Source: Marsupella aquatica
Lineage: Eukaryota > Plantae > Marchantiophyta
Direction: 5' to 3'
Length of the DNA stretch: 64,000 nt
Assembly (NCBI GenBank): GCA_973895155.1
Contig: OZ316893.1
Location: forward strand, 5,842,171 to 5,906,170
The first letter of the stretch is position 1; every line of letters begins with the position of its first letter. Positions 27,205 through 61,200 of this stretch are shown piece by piece. The position numbers and the translations under genes are program-made. The notes under the pieces were generated by a model, which saw only the letters and a list, made by a program, of their open reading frames with translations, was not told where the DNA came from and did not search any database.

Positions 27205-27528
27205 TGTGGGGAGAAATCAGATCAGGAAAAACACTCCAAACATACACGTGTTCAATAGTTACGTGGTTCGCCTCAAGGTTGGCTACGTCCACGGGAAGAC
27301 CAAGCTTTATTAGCGGTTATATGTCTACTCAAGCATCACCATAGCTCTCATCTCTTCAAGCTTTCATCTCTTGTTATATCACTGTGTTCTTTCTTGAGAA
27401 CTCTCTGTTGTGTTCTCACACCACATAGAAGTTGAAGAGATAAGGACCAATCTCTTCAACTAGGGTTTACTCTAACCCTAGTTAACATACTAACCATAGT
27501 TCAACCCAAGACTGAGTTAACCTTTACA
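27205..27528 (-). repeat. 3' LTR of copia element 1
   Basis: TGTGGGGAGA...CCTTTACA. About 10 differences from the 5' LTR by eye. PPT (AGGGGGAGTT on minus) is adjacent at 27529-27538. Confidence 0.95.
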
Positions 27529-28340
27529 AACTCCCCCTTGACTCACGTCTTGGGAGGGTTCATAACATTGTCTTTTCCTTACAAGTTCCTCCGTGGGAAG
27601 TTCAAGGCAGTAGGGCCAAAAGACCCTCCCCCTAATGCAAGGGTTAACTAGAACTAAGCCGTAGCCGATAAACCATCGGATGGAGTACTCATATAGAGAC
27701 ATTTTCTTGGTTAACTCTATATTTACAATATTTGTAAATAATTACAATGCCTTGAAAAACTATTGGAGTTTAATACTTTGGTAAAAACATCCGCTGGATT
27801 AAGCTTTCCATCAATCTTGACAAGCTCAAATTCATCATCCGATAATGCCTGTCGGATGAGATGATAGCGGACATCAATGTGCTTTACCCTGCCATCCATC
27901 ACCTGATTCTTGGCAGTGTAAATTGCACTTTGACTGTCACAATGAAGATATACACACTCTTGTGATAAACCCATCTCCGCGACAAGCTTTTTCAACCAAA
28001 TGGTCTCTGATGCTGCTTCTGCTGCTGCTACATACTCGGCATCCATAGTAGACTTTGCAACACACTTTTGGAGAGTAGACTTCCAACTAATGCATCCACC
28101 AGCAAGTGTAAATACATATCCAGTTGTTGATCTCCTCTTATCCAGATCATCTGCGTAGTCTGCATCCACATAACCTTGAAGCACTTTCATATTGTTTGAA
28201 CTTGCATCAAACAATAAACCCCTCTTAGTGGAACCTTTGATGTAGCGCAAAATCCATTTCACTGCTTCCCAATGAACTTTTCCTGGATTTTCCATGTATC
28301 TGCTTACCTTGCTAATGGCATAAGCTATGTCTGGTCGGGT

Positions 28341-28628
28341 CTCGGGGGGTTAACTAAGTGTATATTTTGGGGTATCACATGTGATCCTAGCCTAATATAA
28401 ATAGACCTATTTTATAAATAAAATATTCTAAGAATATTCTCCATTTTCAATATTAATAACCCTATTTTATTTTATAAAAAGTATATATTAGAGAATATTC
28501 TATAAACATGAGTTTATAATACCTTCTTTTGCCTCCTACGCTTTTTAAAAATTTAGTTAATTTCTATCAAAAATACCTATTTTGGATCGCACGTGGTTCC
28601 TAAGATTTTTGATAGTCAACCCCCCGAG
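28341..28628. mobile_element. 288-bp MITE with 8-bp TSD (hAT-like TSD length) inserted in copia RT
   Basis: TIR CTCGGGGGGTTAACTA / TAGTCAACCCCCCGAG; TSD GGTCGGGT at 28333-28340 and 28629-28636. Removal restores MVCTRPDIAY. Confidence 0.93.
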
Positions 28629-30294
28629 GGTCGGGTGCATACCATGAGATACATTAAACTACCCACAGCACAGTTTTCATAAGGAACTTTGGATATCAAA
28701 ATTTTTTCTGTCGCATCTGATGGACAAAATGCTGCAAAAATATTGAAATGCCTTGCCAAAGGAACACTCACAACCTTAGCATCTGCCATGTTGAATTTTG
28801 AGAGTACCTTCTCTGCATATCTTTTGCGTCAGCCAAAGTTTGGCTTTGTTAACATCCCTGACAATCTCCATGCCTAGGATCCTCTTGGCTGTGCCCAAAT
28901 CCTTCATCTTAAACTCAGAACTGAGTTGGGCCTTAAGCTAATCAACTTCGCCCCTATCCTCTGCTGCAATGAGCATGTCATCCACATAAAGTACAAGGAT
29001 GACAAGCTTAAAACTTGTGTTGTTCACATGCCTGATGTAAACACATGGATCGTACACGCTTTGCACAAATCCAAGCGATTTCAAAAATTCATCAAAATGC
29101 TTGTTCAATCCACTGCCTTGGGCTCTGCTTTAATCCATACAAGGATTTTAGCAACCTGCATACCAAATTTTACTTGCCATTTTGCACAAAACCCTCTGGT
29201 TGCCTCATGTAAATCACCTCATCCAACGATCCATATAAGAATGTCGTGACAACATCCATTTGATCTAAAACCAAATCAAATAAAACTTCAAGAGCACATA
29301 GCAAACGTATTGTTGAATACTTTGCTACGGGTGAAAAAACCTCATTGTAGTCTATACCTTTCTGTTGAGTAAAACCCTTGGCTACCAACCGAGCCTTATA
29401 TAAATATCTTCTCAGCATCCTCTGTGGGTCCATCTTTCTTTCTATACACCCACTTGCTGTCAATAGCCTGCTTGTCACTAGGTAGACTTGTGAGTTCCCA
29501 AGTCTTGTTATCATGAAGGGATTTAGTTTCCATGCGCATCGCCACCTGCCACTGTTGCTTCTCCATAGAAGCTAGGACCTCTCGAAATGAGGATGGATCT
29601 CCATCTTCTATCACCAATGCATCAATAGATTCTTCATCCAAATCCACATGATCAGAAGGAAGCCAAGTTCCATACCTTTCCCAAGCTTGATGTTTACGAG
29701 TTCCTTTTTGCACTGAAGACTGTGGCTGATCTGATTGTAGTGTGCTTTGCCTTACAGTATTGTCAACATATTCTTCATTTGACACATCCTCTCCTCTTAA
29801 ATCCTCTAGAGGAGGAAATTGCACTTTGTTAGTAGTAGGGAATTGATCTATCTCCCCCTCCTTCAATGATTTGTTTTCATTGAAGGATACATCCCGACTA
29901 ACAAGTGACTTGCAATCAACTGGATCCCACAATCGATATCCACATAGCTCAAAGGAGGTTTTGTAAGTAATTGCCCGACTAGGAGAGAGATTTACTAGAT
30001 AAGCAACTATGTTGACAGCTTCCGCCCAAAAGATTTGTGGCAATTTAGAGTGGCTCAACATGCTTCTTGCTCGCTCCAACAATGTGCGGTTGAGTTGCTC
30101 AGCAACACCATTTTGCTCAGGAGTGTACACAGTTGTGAGATGGTGAGTAATTCCTTTATTTGCACAATACGTGTTGAACTCGCCAGAGGTGTATTCACCA
30201 CCATTATCTGATCGTAGATATCTCACATTCTTTGCAGTTTGTGTCTCAACTTGAGCTACCCATTGTTTGAAGATGGAAAACACTTCAAACTTAT

Positions 30295-30932
30295 GGCCTC
30301 ATTCACAATTGGAGGACCCAAAAGGAACGTCACACTCAAAAGTGACCATAGTTTATTATGCTTTAGGATATCATTTTTAGGGTGTAATGAGATGATATAG
30401 AAAATTTGATGTACTATACTTAATAAACATCCTATATGTTGGTAACATTCATTAAACTATCTAGCATTTGAGACTTTGAAGCTCTCCTTATATGTCCTTC
30501 AAAGATTGATAAAAGGACTTGTCATGCAACGGGTCACATCATTTCAGGACTCAAAAAGACTCTAAAAAATGCATTTTAGACAATAATATTTTACCAAAGC
30601 ATGCATACTAATAGCATAATCTTATATTTCAAGACTTAAATAGTGACACACACTAAACCTTTATGTACAGGACAAAAATAATCAGTAATTTTGGCTTATT
30701 TAGGGCCATCAATAACAGGATCCCTTAAAACAGTTGAAAACTTGATGTATCTACATGGTGAGGTAGGTTACACCATGTAAAATAGTATTGTGAAAAAATT
30801 AGACTTAAATGTCTTGAGATAAAATCATGATGAATATTTTTTCATGTTATGAAAATTATTTTTCACTAAAAAAACATGTTTTTGAGTCCTGAAAGTGGTT
30901 CTTGCGAGGTACACCCAATTGTGAATGAGGCC
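30295..30932. mobile_element. 638-bp MITE inserted in copia integrase
   Basis: Perfect 18-bp TIR GGCCTCATTCACAATTGG / CCAATTGTGAATGAGGCC; TSD TTAT at 30291-30294 and 30933-30936. Removal restores YFIAHKFEVF. Confidence 0.93.
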
Positions 30933-33718
30933 TTATGGGCAATGAAATAAATCCAAACAAACCTTGAGTAATCATCGATAAACGATATATAGTATTGTTT
31001 ACCTGAATGTGAGGAAATTAGAGCAGGACCCCACACATCGGAATGAATATACTCAAGTACAACTTTAGAATGATGAATGACAGTCGGAAATGGAGTTCTT
31101 ATTTTCTTGCCGACAATGCAATGATCACAAAAACTCAACTTGCATGCTTGCAATCCTGGTAGGAGATGTCGCTTGTGTAGGATTTCCAAACTTTTTTCAC
31201 TCATGTGACCAAGCCGAGCATGCCATAAATTGATTTTCTCCTCCTAAAATGTGACCAAATTGACTTCGGCAAGAAGGGTGGTGCCTTCCAAGACATAGAT
31301 GTTTCTTTTCCTCTTGCCAATAAGAACTTCATTTGATCCATGCGTGACTGTTAATACCCCATCAATTGCACTCCATTGATAACCCTTCGCATCCAAGTAG
31401 CCAAGAGAAATCAAATTTTTACACATTTATGGAATGTGTCTAACATTTGATAGAGTACAGTACTTACCACCTAGTAGTTGAATCTTGGATCCAATCCCTA
31501 AAACTTTACAAGAATGATTATTTCCCATCAAAACAGATCCGTTGATAGGAGTGTAGGATGAGAAAAGTTCACGCATATAACACATGTGATACGAGCAAGC
31601 AGAATCCAAGATCCATTGACAATCCTCAACTTGGGAAGTGGTACACAATGCAAATCCTTCACTATCCTCTTCTCAAACAACTACTTGGGCTGAAGAACCA
31701 ACAACTTCCTTGAATGTGTTTTTGACGCGACAATCCTTCTTCATGTGGCCCACTTTGTCACACTTCCAACACTTTATCTCACGAGTAGACCTGGATGGTG
31801 ATTTGGATCGAGATCTAGGTCTGGATCTAAACCTCCTCCTACCAAAGGATCGATCGTGGAACCTTCCTCGCTCCATGGGAAGTGGGTTAAACCGTTTATT
31901 TTCATGAGATGACTCCCTTGTTTTGCCTCTTTCTACCAATAGTGCTGTTGATGATGAGGTTGAGGTAGGATGAGCTGAAGAAACCAGCTTAGACTGCATA
32001 TCATCGGTCAATAGGGCACTCACTACATCATTGTAGGATATAGTTGTCTTATCACGGAATAGAAGAACTCAAGACAAAGATTGGTATGAAGGTGGTAGTG
32101 AGCTCACGAGTTGTAAGGCTTTCTTTTCTTCGCTCAAATGCTCCCCCAAATTCTCTAGGTCAACCATAAGATCATTGAACTGATCGATATGATCTTGAAT
32201 CTTGACTCCATCAGCCATTTTGAATTGCATGAGCTTCAGGCTTGCATACATTCGGTTTGACATCTCCTTCTTATAGTACTTGTTGCGCAATGCTTGAAAC
32301 AAGTCCGTCACCGTTTGTGTTGCTTTTTCCTCGAACTGCTTTTTCACATTGTTTTTCAAGTACATGCCAACAATACTTATCGCTTGATCCTGGAGATCAT
32401 GCCAATCATCATCTTCCATCTCCTTGGGTTGAGATCTTATTACCTTGCCTAGGCCCATCGCCCTAAGTGCATCCCTCACGTTACGTTCCCACATTGTATA
32501 GTCCATCCGACCATCAAATTTTTCCACCTCAAAACTTTGACCTCCAATCCTAGTAGTCGACATCGCTGGAATGCCAAATGTAGTGTGGAGTCGCCTTCCG
32601 ACAAGAAATAAATGTCGAATGCTCAGATGTGGGGTGTGAAAATAAGGCCAAAAATGAAAGTTGGTGAATTTTGAAACTGATCACTCCTATGTGTAGCCCA
32701 CAAGGTAACGCTCCAAATTTTGAAAACGGTTTGTCAAATGGACTCTCGAGTGCCAAGAATTTTTACTCCAACCGGAGGGGGGTTAAAGATGAAATAATTA
32801 CCCCTCGAGGGAATCTCTTATGCCAAAGATTCCACTAGTATACTTTTTCAGAATCAAACACACCAATACTTGCCTAGCTTCCTCAAGTACGCCTCTCCAA
32901 AAGTTGAAGTTGATCCGATTTTATTTGCCGCTCAGAATCTTTGACCTTCGGTAAAAATTTAAGCCTCTGGAAAATAATCTTTTCGGGAAATTTCGTCCAC
33001 CCTTGTACAGCCCATGTGGGGGACTTCACAGGGGGCACTTCCCCCTGCCCGAGCCCTGTCGAGCCTAAAAGGCCTCCTCAAAGTTTTCGACCTCCTCGCA
33101 CGTCCGCGGAAGTCGCGACTACTCACGGCAGAAAGTACCCCTCGGCGGATTCACTCAAATTCCCGTCTCAGTGTTTGACGAAATCCAATTTTGATTTCAG
33201 ATTCAGAAACTAGACTTCGAGGGCATCAAGATTGATATAAAGAACTCGCAAAACGGTGGAGTAATGAGGGAGAAACAATTCGGTGAAAGTGACTGATATT
33301 AAGTTATTCCCCATAGCCAAAATTTTGAGCTCAAAAAATGAGAATTGAAATTAAGATTGGTTCTCAACCGTTTAACGGAATTCAACGATGTTGATATCAA
33401 AACGTCTAGAAAGACAAGGCGCTCAAGCGTATCTCAGTTTCAAGTCCCAATAGAATAATCAAAAAGACTGATCTGAGAAATTGACCTTATCTCTTGCCCG
33501 ATAACGTAAATTGAAAACCGTCACTTACAATTGTTTCCGTTTCTGACCTCAAGCTTTCACTGCTTCACTGAAATGAGCCCCTAGTTGTGTGCTCCACACT
33601 TGTGAGAAGATTGAGTCTGATCTTCTTTCAATAGCTCCGCTCCGAAGAGGAAATCATCCGCTGTTCGCTTTGCTTGAAGCAAGTTCTATGAAGTTCCTAA
33701 TCGACTGAAAAAATCTGA

Positions 33719-33730
33719 GCTCTGATACCA
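33719..33730 (-). promoter_or_regulatory. Primer-binding site (tRNA-iMet 3' end)
   Basis: GCTCTGATACCA on + reads TGGTATCAGAGC on minus, 2 nt from the 5' LTR. Confidence 0.95.
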
Positions 33731-33732
33731 AT

Positions 33733-34056
33733 TGTGGGGAGAAATCAGATCAGGAAAAACACTCCAAACATACACGTGCTCAATAGTTACGTGGTTCACT
33801 TCAAGGTTGGCTTCATCCACGGGAAGACCAAGCTTTATTAGCGGTTATATGTCTACTCAAGCATCACCATAGCTCTCATCTCTTCAAGCTTTCATCTCTT
33901 GTTATATCACTGTGTTCTCTCTTGAGAACTCTCTTGTGTGTTCTCACACCACATAGAAGTTGAAGAGATAAGGACCAATCTCTTCAACTAGGGTTTACTC
34001 TAACCCTAGTTAACATATTAACCATAGTTCAACCCAAGACTGAGTTAACCTCTACA
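33733..34056 (-). repeat. 5' LTR of copia element 1
   Basis: TGTGGGGAGA...CCTCTACA, followed by TSD GAGAG. Confidence 0.95.
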
Positions 34057-35868
34057 GAGAGAAAGTGCTCCCAATCATGCAGTGGGAGTCCTGCCCACAT
34101 CAATTCTACTTTCTAAGTCATGCAGCCGGCTACTGCCCCTACAATCTTACTTTTTATAAGGCAAGATTTTCATTCCTTATAATGGGCTTATATCAAATTG
34201 ACCATGTGAAGTTTCATTACACTAGACTAAACATACTCCTGCACCTCTCATCTCAGACAAGGAATCCATGCACACTTGTTTTCAATTGATATAAAAAACA
34301 GGATGGAAAAATTTGACCAACCCAAATTATATGACTTTTTCTGAATCAGGGTCTAAAGCCAAACTAGCCAGCTTTTTGGATTTGTTTTTCCAAAATTTAG
34401 AATTCTATTAATAAAATTTACTACTAGTTTAAGATTTGTTTCTATCCTACATGGAAAAGAAGAAAATCAAAATTAGATATGACTGAGAAAATTGTAGAAG
34501 AAGAAAACCTATCTTTTTTTTCAATTTGATGTTTTATTATACCCACCCTTAGTCCACGTAAGAATGTAGACGGTGTTTGGAGGGGGGATCACATTAATTC
34601 CATTCATTTTTTTAGGAGGATGAGAAGGGGACAACCCTGTATCAGCCAGAACATGCTCCCTGCGCACTACATGCCTGCTTCCTAGGGTGCATACTTGTCT
34701 ATTATACAAGAGTTGCATACAGGGGGCAATAATAATATTTTGTGTGCTTTTTCTATGCATTGAGCTCTACATTTAGAACCAATAAAATATCATGTATTTT
34801 ATCACACCCGATGTGCCATTTTAGTGGAACTTAGACCCAGCACTTCCTACCAGTATTAGTCGCAATGTCAGCCTATCCAAAATGACAATTGTTGCCCATA
34901 ATTGTAATTGTGAAGGCGAAAACAACAACAAGGTTGTAATGACAATTTTGGAATGCACTATCATTTTACTGCAGGAATTAAAGCATGTATAATTGCTTTA
35001 TTAACAGGGAAGCTTAGTACATACGTCCCCATATTATGTTCAACCCGTTATTTGCACCATGAAACACAATTGGAGAATGTGAGATCCTGAAGCAAGGCTC
35101 TTTATAAACTTAAGGGCATAGTCACTTGACTTGGTGTCAGTCTACTACTACTACTACTACTAAACACTGACCTCAAGATGTCGACCATCAATTCACTATT
35201 TTCTGAGCTTTTCAAAATTTGCCAACTTTTTGGTAGCCCAAATTCTGTAGATTTCTGATTTTTATTCTGTGTAAAACAAAACTTGAAATCAGATCCAAAA
35301 GATGGAGAAGAATATACAAGGAATCAAATACAAAATTAGAGAGTGCTATATGGTCAATCCACCTGTCAGTGTTTCGTCTTACTAAGAAATTTTGTCACAT
35401 ATTTTTAATTTTTGTATCACTTGTATAATCCATATTTTTGATTACTCCCTAGTATTTTTATCTTCCTATACTAGAACTCTCTCCTCCCCACTACATTTAG
35501 TTTTCAGTGCAAATTATACTTTCAAACCCATTAGCAGATTTTTTTGGAATTTCTTGCAATTCTAGTGCATGAGAGAGAATTAGTACTTTAACTTTTATTT
35601 ACCAAACTTTATGGGTTTTGTTGTCATTACTTAGGGCGGGGTATCTTTTAAACCTTATGTGTGTTAAGGTAAGAATGAGAATCAGTACTGTATAATCTGG
35701 TAATGGTTGTACATATAGTGGTGCCGGTCCGGTGACTGGCTGTAAATGGTAACATTACACCGGTTAAATTATAGTCCTTTAGTCTTAGAAGCGTCAGCCA
35801 GAAGTTAATCCAGGGTATTTAGGGAGCAGCACGCAAGGACCGGTAGCAGTTCATTGCATCCTGTTAGA

Positions 35869-36477
35869 ATGGTGGAAAGGCTAGAATTAGGAGAGGCGAC
35901 GATCATCGCGATTAGTGGCCGGATAGGAGTAGAGTTCTGTTATGAAGGTTGCGATGGCTTTCTAGCAAATGGCAAGGTCTGTGCCTTAGGCACAAGGGCT
36001 CGACAGAAAAGACAAGAGGGGACCGACATGGGAACCCCTATTAGCCGAAATCGAGTAGGGCATAGGTGTAAACCGCTAGGCGAAGGAGTGCTTATGTTTA
36101 TGTTCACCATTCGGGTGAAAGAAGGGAGTTGTCGTGTCTGGGATGAGGCCGGGCAACAATTGTTTGGAATGAAGGGCGAAGAGTTTCGTCAGCAATTCAC
36201 GACCAGCGGGGCCATTGAGGGATTCTGCCAAAATGTCATGCGGAAGAAGTGGAATCTGGTACTAAGGCGGGATAACAACCGCGATCAACGGATTGCATGG
36301 CGATTAATCACCGCCGGTCAAGTAATCGTCGCCAACAAAGCGACTACCGCTAAGGAAGGGGACGATAACCTAAATGTCGTTTCACACTTAGCAGAATTGG
36401 CGATCGAAAGTCCGGAAGCTTCCAGTTCAGGCGCCATCAAAGAAGAGAATCAAAGGCGTCGTTGCACAGTTCAGTAA
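35869..36477 (+). CDS. RPA1 C-terminal (Rep_fac-A_C)-like OB-fold protein encoded inside the TG...CA element
   Basis: Intact 202-aa ORF from ATG 35869. ATIIAI..FCYEGC..KVC..RC..FMFTIRV..GSCRVWDEAGQQLFGMKGEEF parallels RPA1 DBD-C (ATI..I..YxAC..KK..Y.l...D.tG..w...FdE.ae.llG..a.el). Confidence 0.65.
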   Translation: MVERLELGEATIIAISGRIGVEFCYEGCDGFLANGKVCALGTRARQKRQEGTDMGTPISRNRVGHRCKPLGEGVLMFMFTIRVKEGSCRVWDEAGQQLFGMKGEEFRQQFTTSGAIEGFCQNVMRKKWNLVLRRDNNRDQRIAWRLITAGQVIVANKATTAKEGDDNLNVVSHLAELAIESPEASSSGAIKEENQRRRCTVQ

Positions 36478-37342
36478 CCACAAGAATCTTCTTGACATGT
36501 AAACACGGTTCTTGGCTCGCTCATCGTTCTTGGCAGGAGACAGTTAGAGTTTCTTTGCAGATTAGCGCAGGAGACCACGGCTGAAGGGCGAACCGTCCAA
36601 CTGAAGTCGGCGCGCCCCGGAAAGTAGTTAGAAACCTCAGCAAAGACGGACGCGAGGCATAGGTATTTAGAGGCTGTGGAGCGCTAGGCGCTCTGTCACT
36701 TTTTGCTAGGAGCTTGGTTGAGAGGTAGAGCCGGACTCACCTCAAGATTACCAGCGTTTTGTATTAATGTCCCTACTCATTTTGAGTAGTTTTCGATTAT
36801 AAAGAGATGTGTATGAATGCAATAGAGTGCAGAGGAACTTTGTTACCTTGTGCTTGAGCGGTGAGTAAGAGTCCAGAGTCAACGTTGGAAGAATGTTGTG
36901 AATCAAGTCAGAAGAAGCAGTAACTTTGAAAGTCATTCGAAGAAGGAGAGGCATTCGTGATTAATACTGAGAGTCGAGGAGTGCGGTTATGGGAGTTCGC
37001 ACGAAGTACTCATTAGGAACATGTGTTAAGTCGATTAATCGTAAATCGCTGGGATGAATGGAAATCGTCTCACTACGAGTGAGGACCTTACGGTTTAGCA
37101 CGTTAAGGTAGCGATTTAACAGACAACTCGTGGGAAGCAAGGTCTGGTTGGAGATTGTGTGTATCCAGGATGTGACCTTGGTCGTCGTACACCTTCAACA
37201 TACAGGGTCAACCGTTAAATTGGGGTTCCTACTACGAATACCTCTATTTAAATTGCTTGATTTAGCCAAAGATAGATCGATTGCCAGGAAGGCCGATTGA
37301 GGGACAGCAGGACCTAACCCGGTCACTGCTACTATAACAACC

Positions 37343-37663
37343 ATGAATGTAGACAGTAAGGTGGACAAGCCTTGCTCCTTGATTAAGTTAAGACCACTGG
37401 AATTGTGGATCTGTTCCATCGGTTCCCACCTGATTACCCGAGCGTTACGCCAGGAGAGTATTCCCATCTGTTTAATTACTTACCGCTATTGGTGTGGGTT
37501 TATCGAGATCATCTACAGGGAGGGTCTGGTGTTGACTGAAGCAGTCGTGCCCAAGAGGTGGAAGGAAGAGTTAGACATTATAGAGCACTTGGTAGGATTC
37601 ACTTACGGGGACTATATAGAGGAAGAGGGGAGTACCCCGCTAGAAGGTCGGTTGATCGTTTAA
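37343..37663 (+). CDS. Unknown conserved protein (ORF2 of the TG...CA element; may be the C-terminal part of a longer decayed ORF)
   Basis: 106-aa ORF. Its last ~65 codons align without gaps to 63794-63991 (minus), with the same stop and mostly synonymous changes. Confidence 0.7.
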   Translation: MNVDSKVDKPCSLIKLRPLELWICSIGSHLITRALRQESIPICLITYRYWCGFIEIIYREGLVLTEAVVPKRWKEELDIIEHLVGFTYGDYIEEEGSTPLEGRLIV

Positions 37664-38081
37664 GCGGGAGATACTGCAAAGAAGGCAGTTAGACGTCCGT
37701 TAATCGCAAGTCAAACTGGGCGTTTAACACTGGCTGGTCTGGTCGTCCGGTCACCAGGTAGAGTCTAACACTCCCCTTTGGATATATAGTGACAATTATA
37801 TAGACAACATAGACTATACCTATTATATCATGTTCATAGGAAATACATGATATAAGTACAAGCGAGATAGACTACCTCGTTAAAAAACCTTTATCAACTC
37901 TAGCTTAGTAAAAACTCTACCAGTGTAGCAGAGAAAAATATGAGTGCTAAAGGAAAAAGAGTGCAGCCTAACAGTCCTCGTCGTAATAAATGTCAATATT
38001 AAATAAAGTTAGATGTTATGGTAAATCTAGCTTTAATATCTGTCTCAATAGTAGGTCGTCAGCATCATGTCATCAACAGCA

Positions 38082-39596
38082 TCAATCATCATGTGGAGTA
38101 GCAGCTTCCACGGTCATCATGCGTCGCACGCTCCGCAGTCCAATCGCCTGGCAGTGTCGGTGATGAACTAATGGTGGTAGTGATTTGGTGAAGAGATCTG
38201 CACAGTTGTCTGCACTTGAAATCTGCAAAATGTTGATCTCTTTTCCATGTAACTCGTGGGTGTAGAAAAACTTTGGAGCTATATGCTTCAGGCGATCGCC
38301 TTTGATGAATCCTTTTGTGATCTGCTGTATACATGCTGCGTTATCCTCAAAAATGTTAGTAGGCTTCGTTAGTGGTGGTAGGCCGCATTTGGTGTTGATA
38401 TGGTTTATAAAGGATCGTAACCAAATGGCTTCACGACTAGCCTCATGTAGAGCTAAGATTTCTGAGTGATTCGATGAGGTTGCTGTTAGGGTCTGTTTCA
38501 CGCTTTTCCAAGAAAAAGCGGTACCCCCTATGGTAAAAATGTATCCAATTTGGGATTTTGCGGTATCAGTGTCGGAGAGATATCCGGCATCCGCATATCC
38601 TATGAGCTTGTGGTTTGCACCGAATGGGTAAAATAACCCGGTATCAATGGTTCCATGTAGATATCTAAATACGTGCTTAACTCCGTTCTAGTGTCTGGTT
38701 GTGGGAGTTGCAGTATGTCTAGCTAGTAAGTTAACTGCAAATGCAATGTCTGGTCGTGTCTGATTTGCTAGATACATTAATGCTCCTATCGTAGAAAGGT
38801 ATGGGGTTTCTGGTCCTAATAGTGGTTCATGCTCTTCGTGCTTGCAAAAAACATCAGTATTGTTTCTAATGAACGTACAACCATTGGTGACGTCAATGGG
38901 TGTGCTAGGTTCATATTGAACTATTTTAGGATCTTTTCAGTTTGTGTGGTTTGATGGAGCATCATGCCAGTAGGTAAGATCTCCAGTTGTAATCCTAAGC
39001 AAAAGTTTGTATGTCCAAGGTCTTTCATCTCAAATGTTGATTTAAGACTAGTAATAGTATCTTCTGTAATTTGGGGTGTCATCTAAGTCATCAACATAGA
39101 TAGAAATGATGACATATTCGTCATCCACATGTTTAATAAATAAACATGGTGTAATGGCATCATGGGAAAAACCCATGGCAATCATTTCATCAGTAAATCT
39201 TTGATACCATACTCTGCCACTTTGTTTCAGGCCATATAATGCCTTCAACACGCGGATAGCTAGTCCACGGCGAGTATTCCGTACGGTTGACACAACGGTG
39301 TCGTTATTATGAGTTACGTGTGTAGATGACACATGAGGTGTAACTTGATATAATTGTTTTATAATCTTATGTAAATATGGGATATGCGATTTAGCGCCTT
39401 GCTCGGTGATATTGTTCCAACTCGGGAGGTGATTGCATGTATAGACAAGTGTCTAAAGTTCCATATAGATATGCGGTTGCAACATCCAGTTATCGCATTT
39501 GTAGTTTATGGAAAATGGCAAATCCGATAAGGTATCGGAATGTTGTGCTATCCATAACCGGTGAGTAAGTTTCATCGTAATGAATTCTCGGTTGTT
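38082..39596 (-). pseudogene. Bianca pol: RT (C-terminal part) and RNase H
   Basis: YDETYSPVMD, ALYGLKQSGRVWY, IYVDDL, YLANQTRPDIAFAVNLLAR, GYADAGYLSD, FEDNAAC. Several stops and frameshifts. Confidence 0.93.
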
Positions 39597-42500
39597 AACA
39601 AGAAGCCTTAAAGGGTGAGTAACAAGCCCAAACTCTAAGCACTCTCGTAAAAAAATTGCAGAAACAAAGAAAATGGCAAAAAAGTGGCCAAAAATACTAC
39701 CTGTTTATTGACAAAATTATAAAACAAATTGAAAGTATTAAAATGACACACTTTTTTCACCATCTCCTAATTACAAAATGATCTCAACTTACTTTTGATA
39801 AAATTACTACCTATAATTTTACTATGCCATTTTAGCAATTTTTACCAAAACATGATTTGTATTTTTAACAAACAATCAAATTACCTCCATAATTCATTAG
39901 ACTTGGGAAAAATTCAAATTCATAAAATATGATCTCTTTTTGACTCTCCAACATGCGCCCCTTCACTCTTTGAGGAAGACTTTTCAATGGAAGATGATAT
40001 CTCCATAAATTCACCACCTACGCTTCCAAATGTACCCGTTCTGATCCAAATCAGATCACTCAATGGCTCCTCTTTTACTCTCAACCTGGCTCTCAACATG
40101 CCTGAGTTTGATTTGTTAGGCAACATCTGAATTTCACAAACATATTGACCCAACTGGGCTCCCCCAACCTCTTCTTGGGGACCTCTTCCAAATTCTTATT
40201 CTTCCCCTTCAAGTTAATTTCTTGATATTGATTGGCTTCCAATCTCAGCCAAATGATGCAAGTGTGCCCGGGTGACCTTCTTGTGATGATCCTTTCCTTG
40301 CCGGAATTATTTGCAGCCTCAGTAGGTCTTCTTGTGTCCCCGCTTGTGTCAGCGCTCTTACACCTTCCTGGAATTTGAGAGATGTCAGATGACCATATTC
40401 ACTCTCTCCCCTTGGTGCTTGTTGCAACGCTTGACCTTTCCAAAATGCACAACAATCTGGTTTTGAGACAGGACTTAGTGTTTTTAGAAACTTGTTACAA
40501 TCGGTCTTCATGAATTCATGAGTCCGCTTTCTCAACTGTCCACTATCTTGAAGACCCTTGAGTCGGACACCCAAATTAACACTAGTCTCAACCACATGGG
40601 ATAGAACTTAACGCCCGGGGAGGCTAGTGCTCTCAAATGAGTGAGAAGAACTTAATGTAGACAAAACACACAAAAGAGCAAAAACCCTTTAACTTGAAAC
40701 AAATGAAATAACATGTTTTCATGAATAGAGGACGCCTATTTGAACTTAATTGGTCCTTTCTCTAATTTAAATGAATAAGAAATGCTTAAATCATTTTTCA
40801 ATAATTAAGCCAATCATTTCATGACATAGATGAACAAGTCAAGGAAAAAGTTGAAAAAATTATATTTCCAAAAGTTTTTTATGACACAACACTTTATTAA
40901 TTAGTCTTCTTGGCTACTAGGTGGTATCTTAGTCCTTTGACTTTTTGGCTTGTTGGGCAACTTAGGGCTTCTTTGGGCCTTTTCCCTTCCCCATACCTCC
41001 CTTTACTAGATTGCTCAATTATTAATCTCACAATATTGTTTGGACTACCCAATCCAGTTTACTTGGAGAAATAAATCATTTTTAGGTTTGCATTCCCAAG
41101 TTTCATGAGGATAAACATTGGCATTAAAAACCCATATGTTTTTGCCCACCAGTAAAAACCCATATGTTTTTACCCACCAAGATACGTACTTCCATGACTC
41201 ATGATTGGAGAGTTTGTCTTGTTGACCTACTGTTTCCATATGCTTTTTGGAATATTGGCATTTGGAGCACTTTTTGCTTTTATTTCACCATATTTTTTGC
41301 ATTTCTTGAGATTGAGTGGTTTGTCTTTATCCCCTTTTCTTTCACTTTTGAAGTCTTTCTTTTGGCTATTCTGGAGATTCTCTCCCTAAGATACCTTATT
41401 CTCTTTCATGAATTCATGAAGGGGCTACCACCTGGGAAACTGAGAAACCAAAAGCTTCATGAATTCATGAAGCCCAAAACTGGTTGTGACAAAATACAAA
41501 GGGCAAAGACTGTGTTGCAAGCTCAATGACCTACAAAGGGCTAGGGTAGCCAATTGGCTATGGCAAAGGAGGCTGCGGCCTGGAGAGGGCTATTGCCCCT
41601 CACTTAAGCTCAAGTCGCATCAAGGTGCTGTCATCAGCTGCCGATTGAGGTCAGGCCTAATTTATGGTCTGGGAACGACTGCTAATCTCTGCTGTCGCCT
41701 TCAAAATCCTGAAGCTGAAATTTTGAATTCCTGGTTTGATGTTGATGCTTTGATTGCTGGATTTCACCTGAGTGTTGGACTTTGATTTCTCAGATTTGGT
41801 TATTGAATGAGCTTCTACTGTGATTGACTGCTACTTGAATTAGCTGTGGTAGACTCTGATTCCAATTAGGGGAGATAGCCACAAAGGATCAGGGATAATT
41901 TGTGAAAAATTGAGCTTGAGAGCTAGATCTCAATCGAGCAGACCTAAGGATTGAAGGGGGAGCGAGTGGAGGATGGGAGAGGGAGCAAGGGAGATTGGAA
42001 TGGGATTGATAAGGATTGGAAGGGGATTGGAAGGGGGGCCATTTAGGGATTGGAGGAGGGTGGACAATCGACCGTCAGGGGAACGATCAACCATCAGAGG
42101 GGGATGGAGCACCGGAGGAGGGCAGTCGAGCATCAAGGGGATGATCAAACATTGGAGGGGGAGCGGTAAAAGATCGGGGGGGAGGGTTTAGGATTGGGGA
42201 AGGGTTTCACTAATCAGGGACCAGGGGAGGGCCGATCGGGAATCAAGATTGATCCAGGGAGGATTAAGGGTTGACCAGGCCTGGTCTGGGTCAAAAATGA
42301 GTCCAAGGTGGGTGGATTGGGAGCAGAAGCAAAGAGAACTATCGAGCTTGGGGGAACTAACTGGAGGGAGCTAGGAGGATCAGGTAGCTTCTTTCAGGTG
42401 AGAACCCGGCTTCATGATTTCATGAAGCCAGGTGGCTGCCCAAATCAAACTCGATGTACATTTCAATATTGGTATGGATCAAGAGAGTGGGGAGGACGTG

Positions 42501-42935
42501 AAGCGCACCAGAGTAGAGGGTGCAACAGAAGATGTAACTATTGAGCTAGCTCGGATTGAAGCAAGGATCTTCTAGAAGTGGAGAGGAGGTTAGAGAAGCC
42601 TTAGATTAGTTGAGTTGCATTGTATTTAGAGATTTAGTGGACTTAGATGCACACCTACAATGGATAGTGGCATTCTACTTAAGATTTTGAGTTTGCACAA
42701 ACTCAGATCAAAGACCGTAAATTTTATGTTTGTAATTAAGTATGGATTTGTTATTTTTGGTAATTGTGAAAATGATGTTGAAAATATCCCAAGATTTTCA
42801 TTGAAAGAATTATAATAGCAAAGTTCACAAAACATGTTTCATTTTTATATGTTTTTTTAAAGCACTTTTGGAAAAATCATGAAAATCTTGAAAAAGGAAT
42901 TCGGGCCTTGGACTCATCCCTTAAGGCTCCATGTT
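39597..42935. mobile_element. 3.3-kb non-autonomous TIR element (AACA...TGTT ends, 4-bp TSD) inserted in Bianca RT
   Basis: Imperfect 33-bp TIR AACAAGAAGCCTTAAAGGGTGAGTAACAAGCCC vs revcomp AACATGGAGCCTTAAGGGATGAGTCCAAGGCCC; TSD TGTT at 39593-39596 and 42936-42939. Removal restores GKGFTQQPRIHYDETY. Confidence 0.9.
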
Positions 42936-45900
42936 TGTTGGGTAAATCCTTTCCCTATCAGACGTGCTTTGTAGCGTACAACTTTGCCTTTATCATTTCT
43001 TTTGCGGACGAATGTCCACTTGTAGCCAATGAGGTGTACGTCTTACGGTGTTGGCTCGACTGGGCCAAAAGTGTGTCTGCTTAGTAGGGAATCTAATTCT
43101 CCATTGATAGCTTTCTGCCATTCAGGCCAATCTGGTCTGTTTTGGCATTCTAAGATGGATATTGGTTCTGGTGTCTCGTCAGTGATATGTGTTGCCACCA
43201 TTAATGCAAAAGCATCCTCTATTGAAGTAGTATTTCTATCCCACATCGTACCGGTGTGTGCGTAGTGGATAGAAATCTCTTCATGAGTTGTGGATTCGGT
43301 ATGATCGACATTAGGTGAAGGTGGTATAGATGAACCACGCCTTCTTGGTTGTTTATCCTTTGATCCCAAGGGTCTACCACGTTTGGCACGAGGCTGGGAT
43401 GTATTTGCTGGCTCACTTGATAATTCGATGCGAGCAGATGCTCTCGCAGCTGGAATATGTGAGCGGCTAACTTGTGATGTATTGACGAAAGCGTCGGGAA
43501 GATCTTCCACAATCTTGTGGAGTTGCAAAATTCGTTGAACTTCTTTCTCCCCTTGATTGGTTCTAAGGTCTTGCCAAAATGGCGAGTATCTTTCCCACTC
43601 CAAAGGTGGTTGTGGGTGTTTAGGGGTTATTAATGATGGATAAACATGTTCATCGAAATAACAATCTAGGAATCTAGATTTAAAGATGTCGCCGGTTGTA
43701 GGCTCCATATATCGGATTATGGACGGAGAGTCGAATCCGATGTATATTCCCAACTGCCGTTGGGGTCCCATCTTGGTTCGTTTGGGTGGAGTAATGGGGA
43801 CCATTACTTGACATCCAAATGAACGAAGATGTGATAGGTCAGGTTTGATACCATTAGCGATTTGGTATGGGCTATAGGTATTAAAAGCCGATGGGCGATA
43901 TTGAATTAATGCATTAGCCTGTAATATGGCATGTCCCCATGCTGAGACGGGGAGTTTCGACTATATTAGTAGTGGGCGTGCAATGAGCTGAAGGCGTTTA
44001 ATGACAGCTTCAGCTAATCCATTCGGGAAATGCACGTGGGGTACAGGATATTGTACGTCTATGCCAAGTGATGTGCAAAAGTCATCAAATATTTCAGATG
44101 TGAATTCCCCTGCATTGTCCACCCTGAGTGTCTTAATGGGGTGATCTGGGAATTGTGCTTTCACGCGCAAGATTTGCGCCAAAATGCGAGGCATAACCAT
44201 GTTCCTCGTTGAAAGCAGGGTCACATTTGACCATTTAGTGGATGCATCGATTAATACCATAAAGTAACGGAAAGGTCCGCTTGGTGGGTTAATTGGCCTG
44301 CAAACATTTGCATGGATTATTTCCAAGAATTGGGGTATTTTAGTTGGCAATTTTGATGTCGTGGGCCTTGTTATTAGTTTACCACGTGAGCATGCAGTGC
44401 ATGGGGTGCTCGCTGGAATGTGGCGTGTATTGATTGGAATGCCTCTTGAGTTCTTAATGATTTTGGTTAGCATTGATTGGCCGGGGTGGCCGAGGCGTGC
44501 ATGCCAAAGCGCATGCAATTTGCTTGTGTTGGCATTGTTATGCAGGCATTCAATATGAGTTACATAAAACCCGCAGGGGTACGAGAAAAGGGTTTCTTTA
44601 ATGATTTTCCCCGTAGGGTATTTTCAATCAAGTGGATGACCTCTTGGTCTCTTGTATCGCCTATTTGGACGTGTAGTCCATTTGCTCGTATATCTCTAAA
44701 ACTGAGGAGATTACGAGTTGCGTTCGGGGCGAAAATGGCAGATTCTATGTGTATTTCGGTACCCTGTGGGAGTCTAATAGAAGCTGGGCCGAAGCCCTCT
44801 TCTATTTGGCTAGGACCATTGATAGTGGTCAGGGACTTACGTGAAGGTGTGATCTTATGGAAAAGGTGCCTATCCCGGAGGATAGTATGCGTGGTCGCAC
44901 TATCGATAATACATGTGCTTGGACTATTTAAATCTGGTGTAGTGGAGCTACTTGCCACTAAGTGTGCCTCGGGTTGGACAGGTAGGTCTGAAAAGTCTTG
45001 GAATGGGTCACTAGACTCCATAAACGCCCCGTGGGTTTCACGGGGTGGTGGCCTAGAGGTTTGTCCATCCTGGATGGGCCGTTGGTATAAATCTCTAAGG
45101 TGTTGCAGGATTCTACAGTTTCTCGCTAGGTGGTTTGTCATGCCACATTCATGGCATTTCGGTCGTTCCCGTTGTTGTCGGGATTGTGACCAATCATTTC
45201 TATGGTTGTTGTTATATGTTCTACCACCGCTGCGTCCTCCGCGTCCACCACGTCCACCACGTCCTCCTCGTCCTCCTCGTCCTCCATGTCCTTCTTGTCC
45301 ACCATGTCCTTCACGTCCTCTAAAGGTCCGCTGGGAGTTATATTGTGGACGTTGGTTATAGAAACTCCCCCTATTGTGGGTGTTTCTTTGGTTGCCATTT
45401 TTAGTGCGCTTAATGCCTTGCCTCGATGTGGAGGGTTCAGCATTTTCTATGTTATGGGTTTCATTCTGTTGTCCTGAGGGCAGTGTGCCCGCAGGTCGTT
45501 TTCTAGAGTTTACTAAAAGAAGTTCTTGGTTTCTTTCGGTGACTAGGAGGTGGGCTATGAGCTCGGAGTATTGCCCGAACTTCATGTTTCAATACTTTGT
45601 TGATAGCCACACATTTGATGAATGAAATGTCGACAGGGTCTTCTCTAGCAGATCCTTGTCTATGACCGGCTCGCCACATAGTGCGAGGGTTGATGTTATT
45701 CTAAAGAGTTCGCTATTGTAGGCTGAAATAGAGGTAAAGTCTTGGACTCGTAGGTTTAGCTAGTCTTGCCTGGCTTTAGGTAGTTCGACCAGTTTTTGGT
45801 GGTCGAATTGGGTTTGGAGCGCTGTCCATAGTTCCCGAGGGGTTGAAAGGTGCATGTATTGTCTCTGTAGGAATCTATGGATGTGGCGTCTCAGGAATAC

Positions 45901-45962
45901 TAAGGCCTTCAATTCATTGGCTTTAGTTAACGGGTCTGGTTGGGGTTCGCCAGCTAGTATAG
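42936..45962 (-). pseudogene. Bianca gag (C-terminal part), PR, IN and RT N-terminus
   Basis: KALVFLRRH, LEKTLSTFH, RGG-rich tract, [71 protein letters not shown]. Confidence 0.93.
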
Positions 45963-48273
45963 AACACGATTTCGGACTGAACGAGAACTATTTTCTCTAA
46001 ACAAGAAGTGTATTTTCATTTTCCGCCGAATCTCGCGAAATCGGCAGTTTTTTTCATCAAAAACACGTTTTTGGGAAAATAATGTAATTCGTATCGAAGT
46101 TCGGATTGAAACAGCAAATTTAATAATGATCAAAACCAATGAAATTCATGCTAACAAACATTCAAATTATCAAGGAACAATTAGATCCAAAAAACTTTCT
46201 CCTCAACCTCATATTCACGCTCTCCGAAGATATATGAAAGGTCTTATCTCTAAATCCATATCCATGTTTCAAGCCAAGTGCGATAACTGTATCGGACTCC
46301 GGATTTGAGCCATGAAAGCTCCGACCCAATCTCAGTTTTCTCAGTTTTTGGATATTTACCAAGAATATTTTACATTACAGTCGATAAGAATTACTGCACG
46401 GTTTGTCAAACTTACCTTGCAGTTACCTCCGCAATTGACCAGTTACCTCCGCAAGTGACCATAGTCAACATGCCATTCTTTCAACAGCAATACGCAGTCC
46501 GATAAAATTATCGCGAAAACTACGGGCGACAAAAATACTAGTCGACAATACTAAGATCCTTCGGTTTATCGGTTAAATTTCAAAATTCCTATCCATATGA
46601 AGAAAACTCTTTGCAATACCAACATCAGATAAATTTATCGCTTCAATTTCAAAATTGCAACTTCCATATGAAGGAACCACTTTTGCAATACCAACATCAG
46701 ATAAATTTATCGCTTCAATTTCAAATTGCAACTTCCATATGAAAGAACCACTTTTGCAATACCAACATCAGATAAATTTATCGCTTCAATTTCAAAACTA
46801 TATAATTTTGCCATGATGCATGTGTGAGAATGAAATTGGAAATCCAAGAAATATACCCTTTTCTGCTATTTTGTCGTTTAGGGTGACAGCCAATCAAAAG
46901 TGGACATGTGGGCCAACCCCTCAACAGACACTATAAAAGGGCCACCGCCGATAAGTTTTTGGTGTCATTATCGAGAGTAGAGTTTTGGGAGTTGTGTTCT
47001 TGGAGCAACATTCTGTCCGTTGAGCCTTTCGTTTTCCCTGATTGCGGGAGGAATGCAAAGCCCCATAGTCTTACAACAGAAGTGAGCCTGTTTGTGATAC
47101 TTGTTGTCAAGACGACGACAACAATAGTTACAAGAAAACTCCAAAGAATGTAAACACGCCGTTAACATCAACCTCGAATGAATTGGAACTCCTGCATCAT
47201 TCATTCCGTAGAATTCAATGCGGAGAGGATTCTGCCTATCTCCAGGATCAGTACCACCCATCCACAATGCTCCTATACCGATGGGGAGAAATTTGAGTTG
47301 CACGAGTCTCTTGTACAACCGGCGTGCACGTTTGACACAATTTTCAAGGAAGACAGCCATTTGTCACAATACCTGTTGTCCACGAAGTGCAATCGACCTT
47401 TCATTGTGCCTCCTAAACCCGGCAACACTGCGACATCAGAGATGAAGATGAGTCTCCAAACAAAACAAAGGAAAATGATTCTCACAGGAGGATGCGATAA
47501 GTTTATCGCACTCCACATTCGAATTGAAAATATGACTTCCTCAGACACCTAAGCCCTGAATTCAATCTTTCACAAAAATGATAACTCCGATAAATTTATC
47601 GGATTCTCAATTACTCCTCTTTCCATGAAAGGAATGAAGACTCCGATAAATTTATCGGAATGAAGGCAACACCTCTCTAAACACTGGATCAAATGATTGC
47701 AACAGAGGAATGCAGAATGCAATAAATTTATCGCAGTCCGCTCGGATCTGGACATTTTACACTAAATGACTAGTTAGTCTTACATGGAGAACTTGAACAG
47801 GAATGGCTGTTCCGATAAATTTATCGGGTTTTCGGTAGAAAGAGTCGAATCGCTTGGGAGGAAGTTAAGACTCGATGGGAGTTTGGTATTCGCTCTCAGT
47901 CAGGAGATATTTGCTCTGGCGAAAGCAAATGTTTTATGGGCAGCCTGCTCCTCTTTATATAGGAGACGCTCTAAACCATGGTTAATTTCCCCTTAACCAT
48001 GGTTAAGTTTCCCCTTTACCTGGGTTAGTGCATGGTCGTTCCTGGATTACGTGGTTCGGACCAAGTTACTCGCAGTTCGGACTTTTTCACTGACGGAATG
48101 TAAAACCCGATGCACATATCGCTCCCTGCATTCCCGCGGCGATGCAATGGAGGAAAGTGGCGTTTCGGAGAGTTTTTGCCAGTTTTATCGGTCATTGCAT
48201 TGCCTTAGAAAAAAAATGGGATCGGGCTAAACGAGAACTCCGACACACTTCTCGGTCGGTCCGAAATCGTGTT
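45963..48273. mobile_element. 2.3-kb non-autonomous TIR element (AACA...TGTT ends, 4-bp TSD) inserted in Bianca gag
   Basis: TIR AACACGATTTCGGACTGAACGAGAA vs revcomp AACACGATTTCGGACCGACCGAGAA; TSD ATAG at 45959-45962 and 48274-48277. Removal restores MAQPILAGEPQPDPLTKANELKALVFL. Confidence 0.93.
46575..46797. repeat. ~71-72-bp tandem repeat (~3 units) inside the TIR element
   Basis: TTTGCAATACCAACATCAGATAAATTTATCGCTTCAATTTCAAA recurs at ~46610, ~46682 and ~46753. Confidence 0.9.
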
Positions 48274-48407
48274 ATAGGTTGGGCCATCCCTATGGCTGGG
48301 AGTAGGGTTAGCGAGGTTAGGTTTTCTTTGAGGTTCATGGACCATTCTAGGTAGTTGCCGCCATCGATTTCTAGGGCTGGAAAGGTTAGTTTTTTGAGGT
48401 TGGTCAT
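48274..48407 (-). pseudogene. Bianca gag N-terminus
   Basis: MTNLKKLTFPALEIDGGNYLEW matches the Bianca-type gag start (MsNL.KLeF.ALdi.G.NYL.W). Confidence 0.85.
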
Positions 48408-50086
48408 CTTTAAGGTCCTGGCGTGCAACGGTGGTGTGCGTGTTTATATAATATATATATAGTCAAAAGACAATGCACATTTGCCGCATGCACTGGTGGA
48501 GAAAGGGTTGAGGAAAGCAATCTAAGTCATTGGCAAGTAAAGCAAGAATGATTGGGTTTTTGCAGAATTTAGGTTTTGCACTTAGTAAATTGGTTTTCTT
48601 TGTAAATGTATAACTGCAGGGTTTCCTTTGTATTTGTTATTTCCTTTGTTAAACTGTGCAGTTATCTGGTTGCGCACTTAGGTTTGCAGTTATGGGTGAT
48701 TATTTAGTCGTGCCCTGGTTAAGTGCACATGGTGCTTTGTTAAGTTAATTTCTCATTGTTATGGTGTGCAATAATGGAGGGTTTAGCGGTTAAGTGCGGT
48801 TATGGAGCGTGCACTTAGCGGGTTTGGCTCGGTTCGACGTTCTCTCGATGTTTTGAGCTTTGAGGTTGCGCTATCTCCCTCATTTGCCGCTTCGCTCGAC
48901 CTTCTGATCTCGTTTGCAGTCGTGGCCTTCCGTCTATGGTCCTTATGGTTGCTCTCTATTGCTCATTTCGCCCTCTCGCTGTTTTCGGTGTCTCGCTACT
49001 ATCGGCCCTTCTTTCAAGTGCCCTTTTAATTTTTGTTTCCCATGGAAGTTTAGAATTCGGACGCGCCTCGTGGTTTTGTGAAACACCTTAAATGCGACGC
49101 ATCAGGCTGACCGATCTTCTCAAACGTTTCTCTCTCTCTTTCATTCACTGCTGTTCTCGAGGGTGTGGCCTCTCGCTGCCTTATCGATCTTTTGTATCCC
49201 TGTTCGGCAATCTATCTCCTCATATGAATAACTCGCTCGCGCTCGATCTCTCGTCAAGAAGGCCTCAACTGAAATTGCATCAATTTCTGTTTCGGTCTCT
49301 CGCTGCTGGTGGTCCTTATCTTTCCATTTCAATTCTCCTCCCTCGTAAACTGTCGAATGATTTCTTAATGTTTTCTCTCCCCTCCTTCCTTTGATTTGTG
49401 CAGCGGAGGGATTCTGCTGTCCTTATCAATGCTTCTCTGAAATGGTGCCGAAGTTTTTCTGCTTCAGCAATTGAACCTCCTCTGGGGCTGAGCTAGCGCG
49501 AGAGCAGAGAAGTTCACCTTCTGTTAGCAGTCATGCGTTCCAGGGCTCTCTATCTTCTCCTCTTGACTTCTCGATCCTCGTTTGTCTAATTTAATTCATT
49601 CTCACCTTGCTCCTTCGTAAGCTTTTTGTCCTCCGCCTATGGGCAACGATCCAGTTCTCACCTCGTTTCACCTCGTTTCTCGCCTTCTGGTTCTGCTTCT
49701 TCTAATTCACGTTATTATTGCTGGGGCGCTCTCGTTTTTCCTTCCTTCCTTCAGTAAGAAAAACTATCGCGGGTCTTATCTGCGCTGCGCTCCTAGTCCG
49801 ATTTTGCCTCGACCTTCAACCTTCAATCGATCGCTCCAATCTCCTCTGATCTCTGTAGGCTTTTCAAAGTTTCTTCGCTTCTTTCCGATCTCTTTTCTTC
49901 TCTCTCGATTCTCCTCCAATGAGTCCGAATCGGTGTCTCTTTGTTTTTCTGCCCTCGACTCTCTGATCTTGGATCCAATGTCTTTGTGCTCCTTAGATGT
50001 TAAAGTCGTCCTCTCAATCCCCATTCAAAAAAAAATTCAATCTTCCCTGGTCTTCTCCTTTCTATCTCGCTCCGCTGGCTGAGGCT

Positions 50087-50100
50087 TCGTGCTGATAACG
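50087..50100 (-). promoter_or_regulatory. Primer-binding site complementary to a half tRNA-Ile (anticodon arm)
   Basis: + strand TCGTGCTGATAACG equals the tRNA-Ile(AAU) anticodon arm TCGTGCTAATAACG with G at the wobble position. It abuts the 5' LTR. Confidence 0.85.
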
Positions 50101-50225
50101 TGTTAAGGTAAGAATGAGAATCAGTACTGTATAATCTGGTAATGGTTGTACATATAGTGGTGCCGGTCCGGTGACTGGCTGGTCTGGGCTGGTCTGGTCG
50201 TCCGGTCACTAGGTAGAGTCTAACA
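50101..50225 (-). repeat. 5' LTR (125 bp) of Bianca element
   Basis: TGTTAAGG...GTCTAACA, followed by TSD ATGTG. Confidence 0.95.
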
Positions 50226-61018: not shown

Positions 61019-61200
61019 ATGGCAAAGTCCGATGTTAGGAGAATGGGAAAGTCCGATGCTGGGAGTATGGGAAAGTCCGATGCTAGAAGAATGGGAAAGT
61101 CCGATGCTGGAAGAATGGGAAAGTCCGATGCTGGGAGTATGGGAAAGTCCGATGCTAGAAGAATGGGAAAGTCCGATGCTGGGAGTATGGGAAAGTCTGG
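61019..61200 (+). repeat. 24-bp tandem array (~7.5 units) in the CACTA left arm
   Basis: Units of ATGGGAAAGTCCGATGCT(G/A)G(G/A)AG(T/A). Confidence 0.95.

Follow-up and report, generated by a model that had tools for sequence, protein, structure and literature searches.

A predicted RPA70 DBD-C-like protein with an export-signal-like tail, encoded in a probable solo LTR of the liverwort Marsupella aquatica

Introduction

What is an intact RPA-like gene doing in an LTR-like setting, and what would such a protein do for its carrier? The question is raised by an open reading frame of 202 codons (ORF1) in a 64,000-nucleotide stretch of the genome of the liverwort Marsupella aquatica (contig OZ316893.1 of assembly GCA_973895155.1; hereafter, the window). 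The initial annotation described ORF1 as an uninterrupted frame that encodes a single-stranded nucleic-acid-binding OB fold resembling RPA70 DBD-C inside an LTR-like element, and the frame at 35869-36477 (+) indeed translates stop-free with all of the motifs quoted there.

RPA cargo of mobile elements is known from Helitrons, which captured RPA at least twice (HLE1 and HLE2), according to the available portions of PMC11417382 and PMC9033089. The extra ORFs described for plant LTR elements reside in the internal region and include Athila ORF1, Ogre PMD, Retand TRP28 and orchid AlkB (PMC7264820, PMC6317226, PMC11963269 and PMC12786077, as far as their accessible text extends); no RPA or OB domain is named among such ORFs in the accessible text of the first three sources. 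ORF1 would resemble these ORFs as a conserved accessory frame of a plant LTR element; it differs in that they are internal and have other domains, while ORF1 is located in a presumed LTR. REXdb, in the portion available, counted only ORFs of at least 250 codons; thus, the 202-codon ORF1 would escape this survey. The term RPA is absent from the readable text of the REXdb supplement, outside of which the table of extra-ORF domains may lie. No report of an RPA or OB gene in an LTR retrotransposon was found in the literature covered, in which subscription papers are few.

The carrier of ORF1

ORF1 starts 128 bp inside a 1,989-bp insert, which splits the left LTR of a Ty1/copia element and is nested in the latter (Table 1). 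The host copia includes broken frames for a zinc knuckle, a protease region, integrase, reverse transcriptase and RNase H. Its two LTRs have one difference in 115 compared bases and one indel; as they are nearly identical, both insertions (that of the copia and that of the nested insert) are young. ORF1 is ruled out as part of the copia polyprotein by its opposite strand and by the nesting of the insert. The LTR-like carrier of the initial annotation stands; it is the nested insert and not the copia coding region. The primer-binding site of the host copia (50071-50100, -) is not of the usual full tRNA-Met type and resembles that of half-tRNA priming.

Table 1. Features of the 64-kb window (positions within the window)
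Feature	Position	Strand	Description
PADRE-domain gene	3377-4054	+	Likely host gene, weak Pfam match
527-codon stop-free frame	8903-10486	-	No Pfam match
407-aa open frame	17607-18830	-	RVT_1 reverse transcriptase domain, E 1.8e-29
Second complete-ended copia	27205-34056	-	324-bp LTRs 97% identical, 5-bp TSD, Met-type primer site, broken gag-pol
Host Ty1/copia	35662-50225	-	LTRs of ~120 bp, 5-bp TSD, broken gag-pol; landing site of the insert
Left TSD copy	35736-35740	+	5 bp, CTGGC
Insert	35741-37729	.	1,989 bp, TG..CA ends, 5-bp TSD outside
ORF1	35869-36477	+	202 aa, stand-alone RPA70 DBD-C-like zinc OB-fold protein (predicted fold)
Predicted OB-fold core	35869-36324	+	Residues 1-152: long beta1, zinc insert, beta2-beta3, three helices, beta4-beta5
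Predicted zinc site	35950-36069	+	C28-x9-C38-x26-H65-x-C67, enclosing an arginine-rich insert
Export-signal-like motif	36376-36405	+	Residues 170-179, hydrophobic x3-x2-x1, CRM1-type NES pattern (candidate)
ORF2	37343-37663	+	106 aa, no known family, purifying selection
Right TSD copy	37730-37734	+	5 bp, CTGGC
Multi-exon class-V aminotransferase-like gene	51617-54410	-	Likely host gene, weak Pfam match
Diverged second insert copy, end only	63730-64000	-	78% DNA identity; cut by the window edge

The termini of the insert have inverted complementarity at just 12 of 30 bases, the TIR is no longer than a few bases, and no internal direct repeat is found in the 1,989 bp. Contigs assembled from two public runs start exactly at 35741, and in other copies of the host LTR the joints skip 1,994 bp (the insert plus one TSD) to leave an empty host LTR. 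Contig depth is 565-756 over the insert vs. 32 at the unique left junction of the host (run X1); read depth is not copy number and the contigs may stem from the sample of the window itself, hence these values are taken as 'multi-copy' only. The insert family is multi-copy.

The TG..CA ends, the 5-bp TSD, the multiple copies and the lack of a long TIR or internal direct repeat are the features of a solo LTR, and TSDs of 4-5 bp are typical of plant LTR elements (PMC6317226, accessible part). The insert is likely a solo LTR of a family other than the host copia, with the designation 'LTR' taken solely from its ends; it would be the LTR left after recombination between both LTRs of a full element. 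A TRIM is ruled out by the lack of internal repeats, and a Helitron by the 5-bp TSD and TG..CA ends. Helitrons have no TSD and end in 5' TC and 3' CTRR. Only two ATG-started frames of more than 100 aa are present in the insert (ORF1 and ORF2), neither of which matches Pfam, and there is no Rep-helicase gene; the latter is also missing from non-autonomous Helitron copies. Thus, the initial annotation, which regarded RPA-like genes of plant mobile elements as characteristic of Helitrons, was right to place this one in a non-Helitron, LTR-like context. ORF1 shares with the Helitron RPA genes its location on a mobile element that carries an RPA-type OB gene, and differs from them in a carrier with TG..CA ends and a 5-bp TSD that is devoid of a Rep-helicase (PMC11417382 and PMC9033089, in part).

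Alternatively, the insert could be a small DNA element that is complete but non-autonomous, or its protein family could have its main home in another mobile element and merely have been picked up here. Within the window, a paired copy, primer-binding site or purine tract tied to the insert was not found, nor a clear PBS or PPT beside the second copy at 63730-64000, and the capture of RPA by Helitrons is repeated (PMC11417382, available text); the ends, the TSD, the 12 of 30 complementary terminal bases and the lack of Helitron ends argue against this alternative, which is considered unlikely.

Protein genes within a terminal repeat have precedents: MMTV sag and HIV nef are located in or overlap the retroviral U3. 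The likeness is that of a protein gene inside a terminal repeat that is kept in solo LTRs; the proteins are different, and here the unit is 2 kb with two small genes.

The window also has two arrays of a 24-nt unit (60980-61243 and 62030-62197), which are inverted to each other and ~850 bp apart. Palindromic words related to this unit occur at 46565-47833, within the host copia.

Selection and decay of ORF1 and ORF2

When the 1,989-bp insert is simulated with a first-order Markov model, 3 of 2000 runs contain an ATG-initiated ORF of at least 202 codons. Compared to a high-depth family contig that spans the whole frame, ORF1 has 8 substitutions, no gap and no stop created; at 6 of these 8 sites, the window copy shows a C->T or G->A change. 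The dN/dS of this near-identical pair (0.66, P 0.58) is uninformative and fits recent neutral decay. Compared to a second subfamily, ORF1 differs at 39 sites over 207 bp, and the listed gaps total only 3 nt. The 27 changes listed in codons 8-58 are at third positions in 16 cases (dN/dS 0.22, P 0.001). A 1-nt deletion in ORF1 is noted in one low-depth contig (run X5). The ORF1 family is under purifying selection, while the window copy is likely a young, decaying relic: its intactness is likely due to its youth, as suggested by the 6 of 8 C->T or G->A differences. The initial annotation was silent on this likely cause, as it was on ORF2 and on the export-signal-like tail.

Conservation of the frame in its family is supported on two grounds: purifying selection in the comparison with the second subfamily, and 69 diverged relatives with conserved ligands of the predicted zinc site (see below). 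The notion that ORF1 is a chance or dead frame devoid of function draws on its status as a single protein without Pfam or PDB sequence match and on the neutral look of the recent changes in the window copy. Set against the relatives, the dN/dS of 0.22 and a confident predicted fold, this notion is scarcely credible for the window copy and is refuted at the family level.

A T-rich stretch followed by AG (35850-35871, +) lies just before the start of ORF1 and is seen likewise, by eye, in a loose end of the second subfamily. This may be the splice acceptor of a spliced accessory transcript.

ORF2 has a second copy at 63794-64000 (-), where its last 68 codons are found in the cut insert copy. The two are the same in protein at 53 of 69 codons, with dN 0.17 and dS 1.31 (dN/dS ~0.13). 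ORF2 has one database relative and no Pfam match. A complex prediction of ORF1 and ORF2, in which alignments were not used, scored 0.00 and is evidence neither way.

The protein family of ORF1

A full HMMER scan of 1.84 billion representative proteins returned 73 matches, of which 4 WD40 proteins were dropped as false to leave 69 distant relatives of ORF1. Of 29 relatives looked up, 11 are named (5 from Calypogeia fissa and 6 from Riccia sorocarpa), all of which are liverwort proteins, and 18 are unnamed Logan records. A word-index search with ORF1 alone had zero matches, while one with the family alignment had 5 proteins, including one new. No related loci were found in metagenome or viral contigs, and ESM Atlas searches with the ORF1 relatives gave no usable match. 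Several paralogs are present per species with less than 50% identity to each other, a pattern that would be more in keeping with mobile elements than with one gene of the host.

The family alignment includes the query core and 61 of the 69 relatives (62 sequences), with 8 long proteins left out. Among its best-kept residues are Y25, G27, C28, L32, D34 (N in ORF1), G35, C38, L40, G41, R45, H65, C67, G71, G73, F79, G95, L98, G100 and W128.

In Riccia-type gene models (P0030, P0034, P0036, P0055, P0062 and P0077), the OB domain is preceded by an unnamed domain, a coiled coil and a RING-like finger. These upstream domains have no match in the window and no similarity to ORF2, and a profile of the upstream parts searched against the PDB returns only coiled-coil, RING and WD40 noise and no VANC21. 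The Riccia fusions may represent a larger accessory cassette or merged neighboring gene models.

Predicted fold and zinc site

AlphaFold2, when supplied with the 62-sequence alignment, models the ORF1 core with a pLDDT of 93.7 and pTM of 0.83, and all five models are above 91. The single-sequence model (pLDDT 38) is unusable, and its fold searches are without significant match. The likeness to a zinc-containing RPA70 DBD-C fold, suggested by the initial annotation from motif order, is supported by the alignment-based model: in Foldseek, the top 12 ranks are all taken by RPA large-subunit chains or by complexes that contain them, with 4gop_C as best (E 1.2e-4, TM 0.59) and only match with E <= 0.001. 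An independent wide structure search places human RPA70C first (8rk2_A; Z 11.3, rmsd 3.9, 130/158 aligned), followed by Ustilago RPA (4gnx_C, Z 11.2), Teb1 OB-C (10.7) and CTC1 (8.8); the best bacterial SSB/PriB reaches Z 7.4. The structural matches overall are at an rmsd of 4-6 Å (best 3.9) and an identity of 10-14%. A structure search of BFVD had no match at E <= 0.001.

At the sequence level, the Pfam assignment (Rep_fac-A_C) that had been expected of ORF1 fails, with no match for the ORF1 protein. Rep_fac-A_C is touched by 4 of the 62 family members, below cut-off (best E 0.024), and no other Pfam family is matched by two or more of them. The family profile reaches yeast RPA1-C at E 0.14, below threshold, and phmmer of the ORF1 protein against the PDB returns chance matches only.

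In the model, the C28/C38/H65/C67 site lies between strands 24-27 and 74-83, and the helices span residues 92-99, 103-109 and 113-125. This order of elements equals that of DBD-C, in which a zinc finger separates beta1 from beta2 and three helices separate beta3 from beta4 (PMC8329085, accessible text). The predicted fold thus resembles RPA70/RPA1 DBD-C (PF08646; 8RK2, 4GNX/4GOP, 1L1O and 6I52) and Teb1 OB-C in its zinc insert and its three helices. By contrast, ORF1 is stand-alone, replaces C4 by C-x9-C-x26-H-x-C around an arginine-rich insert, is only 10-14% identical and is below the Pfam cut-off; further differences are a tail motif on a variable linker and many divergent paralogs per species. 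The frame begins at the domain, as an in-frame stop is found 20 codons upstream and the insert starts 128 bp upstream, and DBD-F, A and B are absent. Judged from the model, ORF1 is built like DBD-C yet is not an RPA1, as it lacks further OB domains upstream and has C-C-H-C ligands. The domain would derive from host RPA1, or from it via a Helitron RPA, and then lose its partner OB domains. The ORF1 family is a previously unnamed liverwort protein family of RPA70C-type predicted fold with an LTR-like carrier.

The cysteine spacing departs from the canonical C4 ribbon, as had been observed from ORF1 itself, and the predicted site is C-C-H-C. Of the 53 alignment rows that span the site, 39 have all four ligands and 14 lack at least one; the third position is occupied by His in 56 of 58 rows. 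The first Cys of the FCYEGC motif (C24) is discounted as a ligand, being V in 22 and C in only 11 of 54 rows. The ORF1 family thus lacks the C4 zinc finger of eukaryotic RPA1; a C3H zinc site is possible in archaeal RPAs, as described in part of PMC8329085. The 26 residues that separate C38 from H65 carry a net charge of +3.6 on average and include the conserved R45, R48, R60 and R62, and the core is basic (pI 9.4).

The C-terminal tail

The tail of ORF1 has a motif (hydrophobic-x3-hydrophobic-x2-hydrophobic-x-hydrophobic) with the spacing of a class-1a NES. NES patterns yield many false positives, and this one was first spotted by eye and counted afterwards, in tails of related proteins that are not independent. 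The count covers the 24 of 71 family sequences that reach the end of the core with a tail of at least 25 residues; the 47 that are too short were dropped. The pattern occurs in 17 of the 24 tails vs. 2.9-3.0 expected from shuffles (0 of 1000 shuffles), and in 10 of 15 vs. 1.0 expected when 9 Riccia-type proteins are left out. In these same 15 tails, the four spacings of a continuous helix occur in 0-2 and the reversed pattern in none, while helix spacings are also enriched (8-10 of 24) when the Riccia-type tails are included. For comparison, natural 55-aa windows have the pattern in 8 of 48 coiled-coil/RING parts, 4 of 42 frames from the window, 18 of 108 OB cores and 1 of 69 WD40 sequences. 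Carriers of the motif are spread over the family tree. The linker from core to motif varies from 19 to 86 residues and, thus, fits a short linear motif. The tail pattern also fits the CRM1 export-signal consensus (PMC10674744, available portion) and, as a pattern, is likely a nuclear export signal. Readings of the tail as an ESCRT MIM1, UIM or EAR motif are a poorer fit by eye.

The main rival for the origin of the tail is that it may be a displaced trimerization helix, as RPA70 ends in a helix after the OB fold and the RPA subunits join through C-terminal helices (PMC8329085, accessible text). ORF1 would then keep this helix on a longer linker and act as a decoy or private RPA, which binds host RPA2/RPA3 and thereby weakens or diverts the response to ssDNA (sensing and repair) at integration gaps. 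The closest predicted fold is indeed the domain of the RPA trimerization core, and the helix spacings are enriched once the Riccia-type tails are counted. However, the motif is set off from the core on a linker of variable length, only export-type spacings are enriched in the 15 other tails, and the identity to RPA1-C is low; such a role is improbable.

Possible function

An RNA export adaptor derived from an RPA domain and encoded in a likely solo LTR, analogous to Rev and CERV, is put forward tentatively for ORF1, as possible and somewhat short of probable. HIV Rev hands element RNA to exportin-1. Similarly, gRNA export of the C. elegans element Cer1 requires CERV, a protein with a Cys loop and a candidate NES (PMC10309623, available part). 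The observations that bear on an export role are the ORF, the insert ends with TSD, the further family copies, selection on ORF1 as well as ORF2, the conserved C-C-H-C residues with the basic stretch that they enclose, and the enriched tail pattern, to which a predicted fold is added. In the proposed mechanism: (i) the parent retrotransposon would express ORF1 from its LTR, (ii) the OB groove and arginine-rich zinc insert would bind RNA of the element in the nucleus, and (iii) the tail would bind XPO1/CRM1, such that the element RNA would be exported, then translated and packaged. The main ligand of RPA-type folds is DNA, which counts against RNA export. The likeness to CERV and to retroviral Rev/Rex/Rem is one of functional analogy only, i.e., a small accessory protein with a Cys- or Arg-rich part and an NES-type motif; no common sequence or fold is shown, the export function of CERV/Rev is tested while ORF1 is known from sequence and a model, and ORF1 resides in a presumed LTR with an RPA-type predicted fold (PMC10309623 and PMC10674744, in their accessible text).

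The tail motif is also compatible with a cytoplasmic single-strand chaperone, a role in line with the protection of cDNA intermediates proposed in the initial annotation. The motif would then serve only for cytoplasmic retention of the 22-kDa protein, which would cover genomic RNA or single-stranded cDNA as reverse transcription and strand transfer proceed. A fold of the ssDNA-binding type and the basic core are in accord with this role. The job is, however, normally done by the nucleocapsid of Gag, and the conserved arginine-rich insert could equally be an import signal, which points to shuttling; the chances of a chaperone are judged to be low.

Less likely still is an anti-silencing or chromatin factor that would bind ssDNA or R-loops at the element and keep the latter transcribed; a counter to silencing was the other function suggested in the initial annotation. 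The Riccia gene models that fuse the OB domain to coiled-coil and RING-like regions would agree with such a factor, as would the CpG content of ORF1, which is not depleted (o/e 1.08 vs. 0.72 in the host copia). The fusions may, however, be merged gene models, an export-type tail is unexpected in a factor of this type, and the 202 aa include no chromatin domain.

Significance

The export-adaptor proposal extends to a broader scenario that is rather doubtful as a whole: liverwort LTR elements would have turned RPA domain C into an LTR-encoded, Rev-like exportin-1 adaptor for genomic RNA, an independent plant invention of the strategy of complex retroviruses that would be found across leafy and thalloid liverworts and left in every solo LTR. 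According to section 2.2 of a 2025 review (PMC12786077), the RNA export of plant LTR retrotransposons is not yet studied directly. A small, soluble, element-encoded protein with a defined predicted fold and a four-residue export-like motif makes this question testable. The ORF1 family escapes Pfam as well as the main survey with its 250-codon limit. Should the export reading fail, ORF1 would still represent an unnamed liverwort family with a predicted RPA70C fold on an LTR-like carrier, whereas RPA cargo is described for Helitrons.
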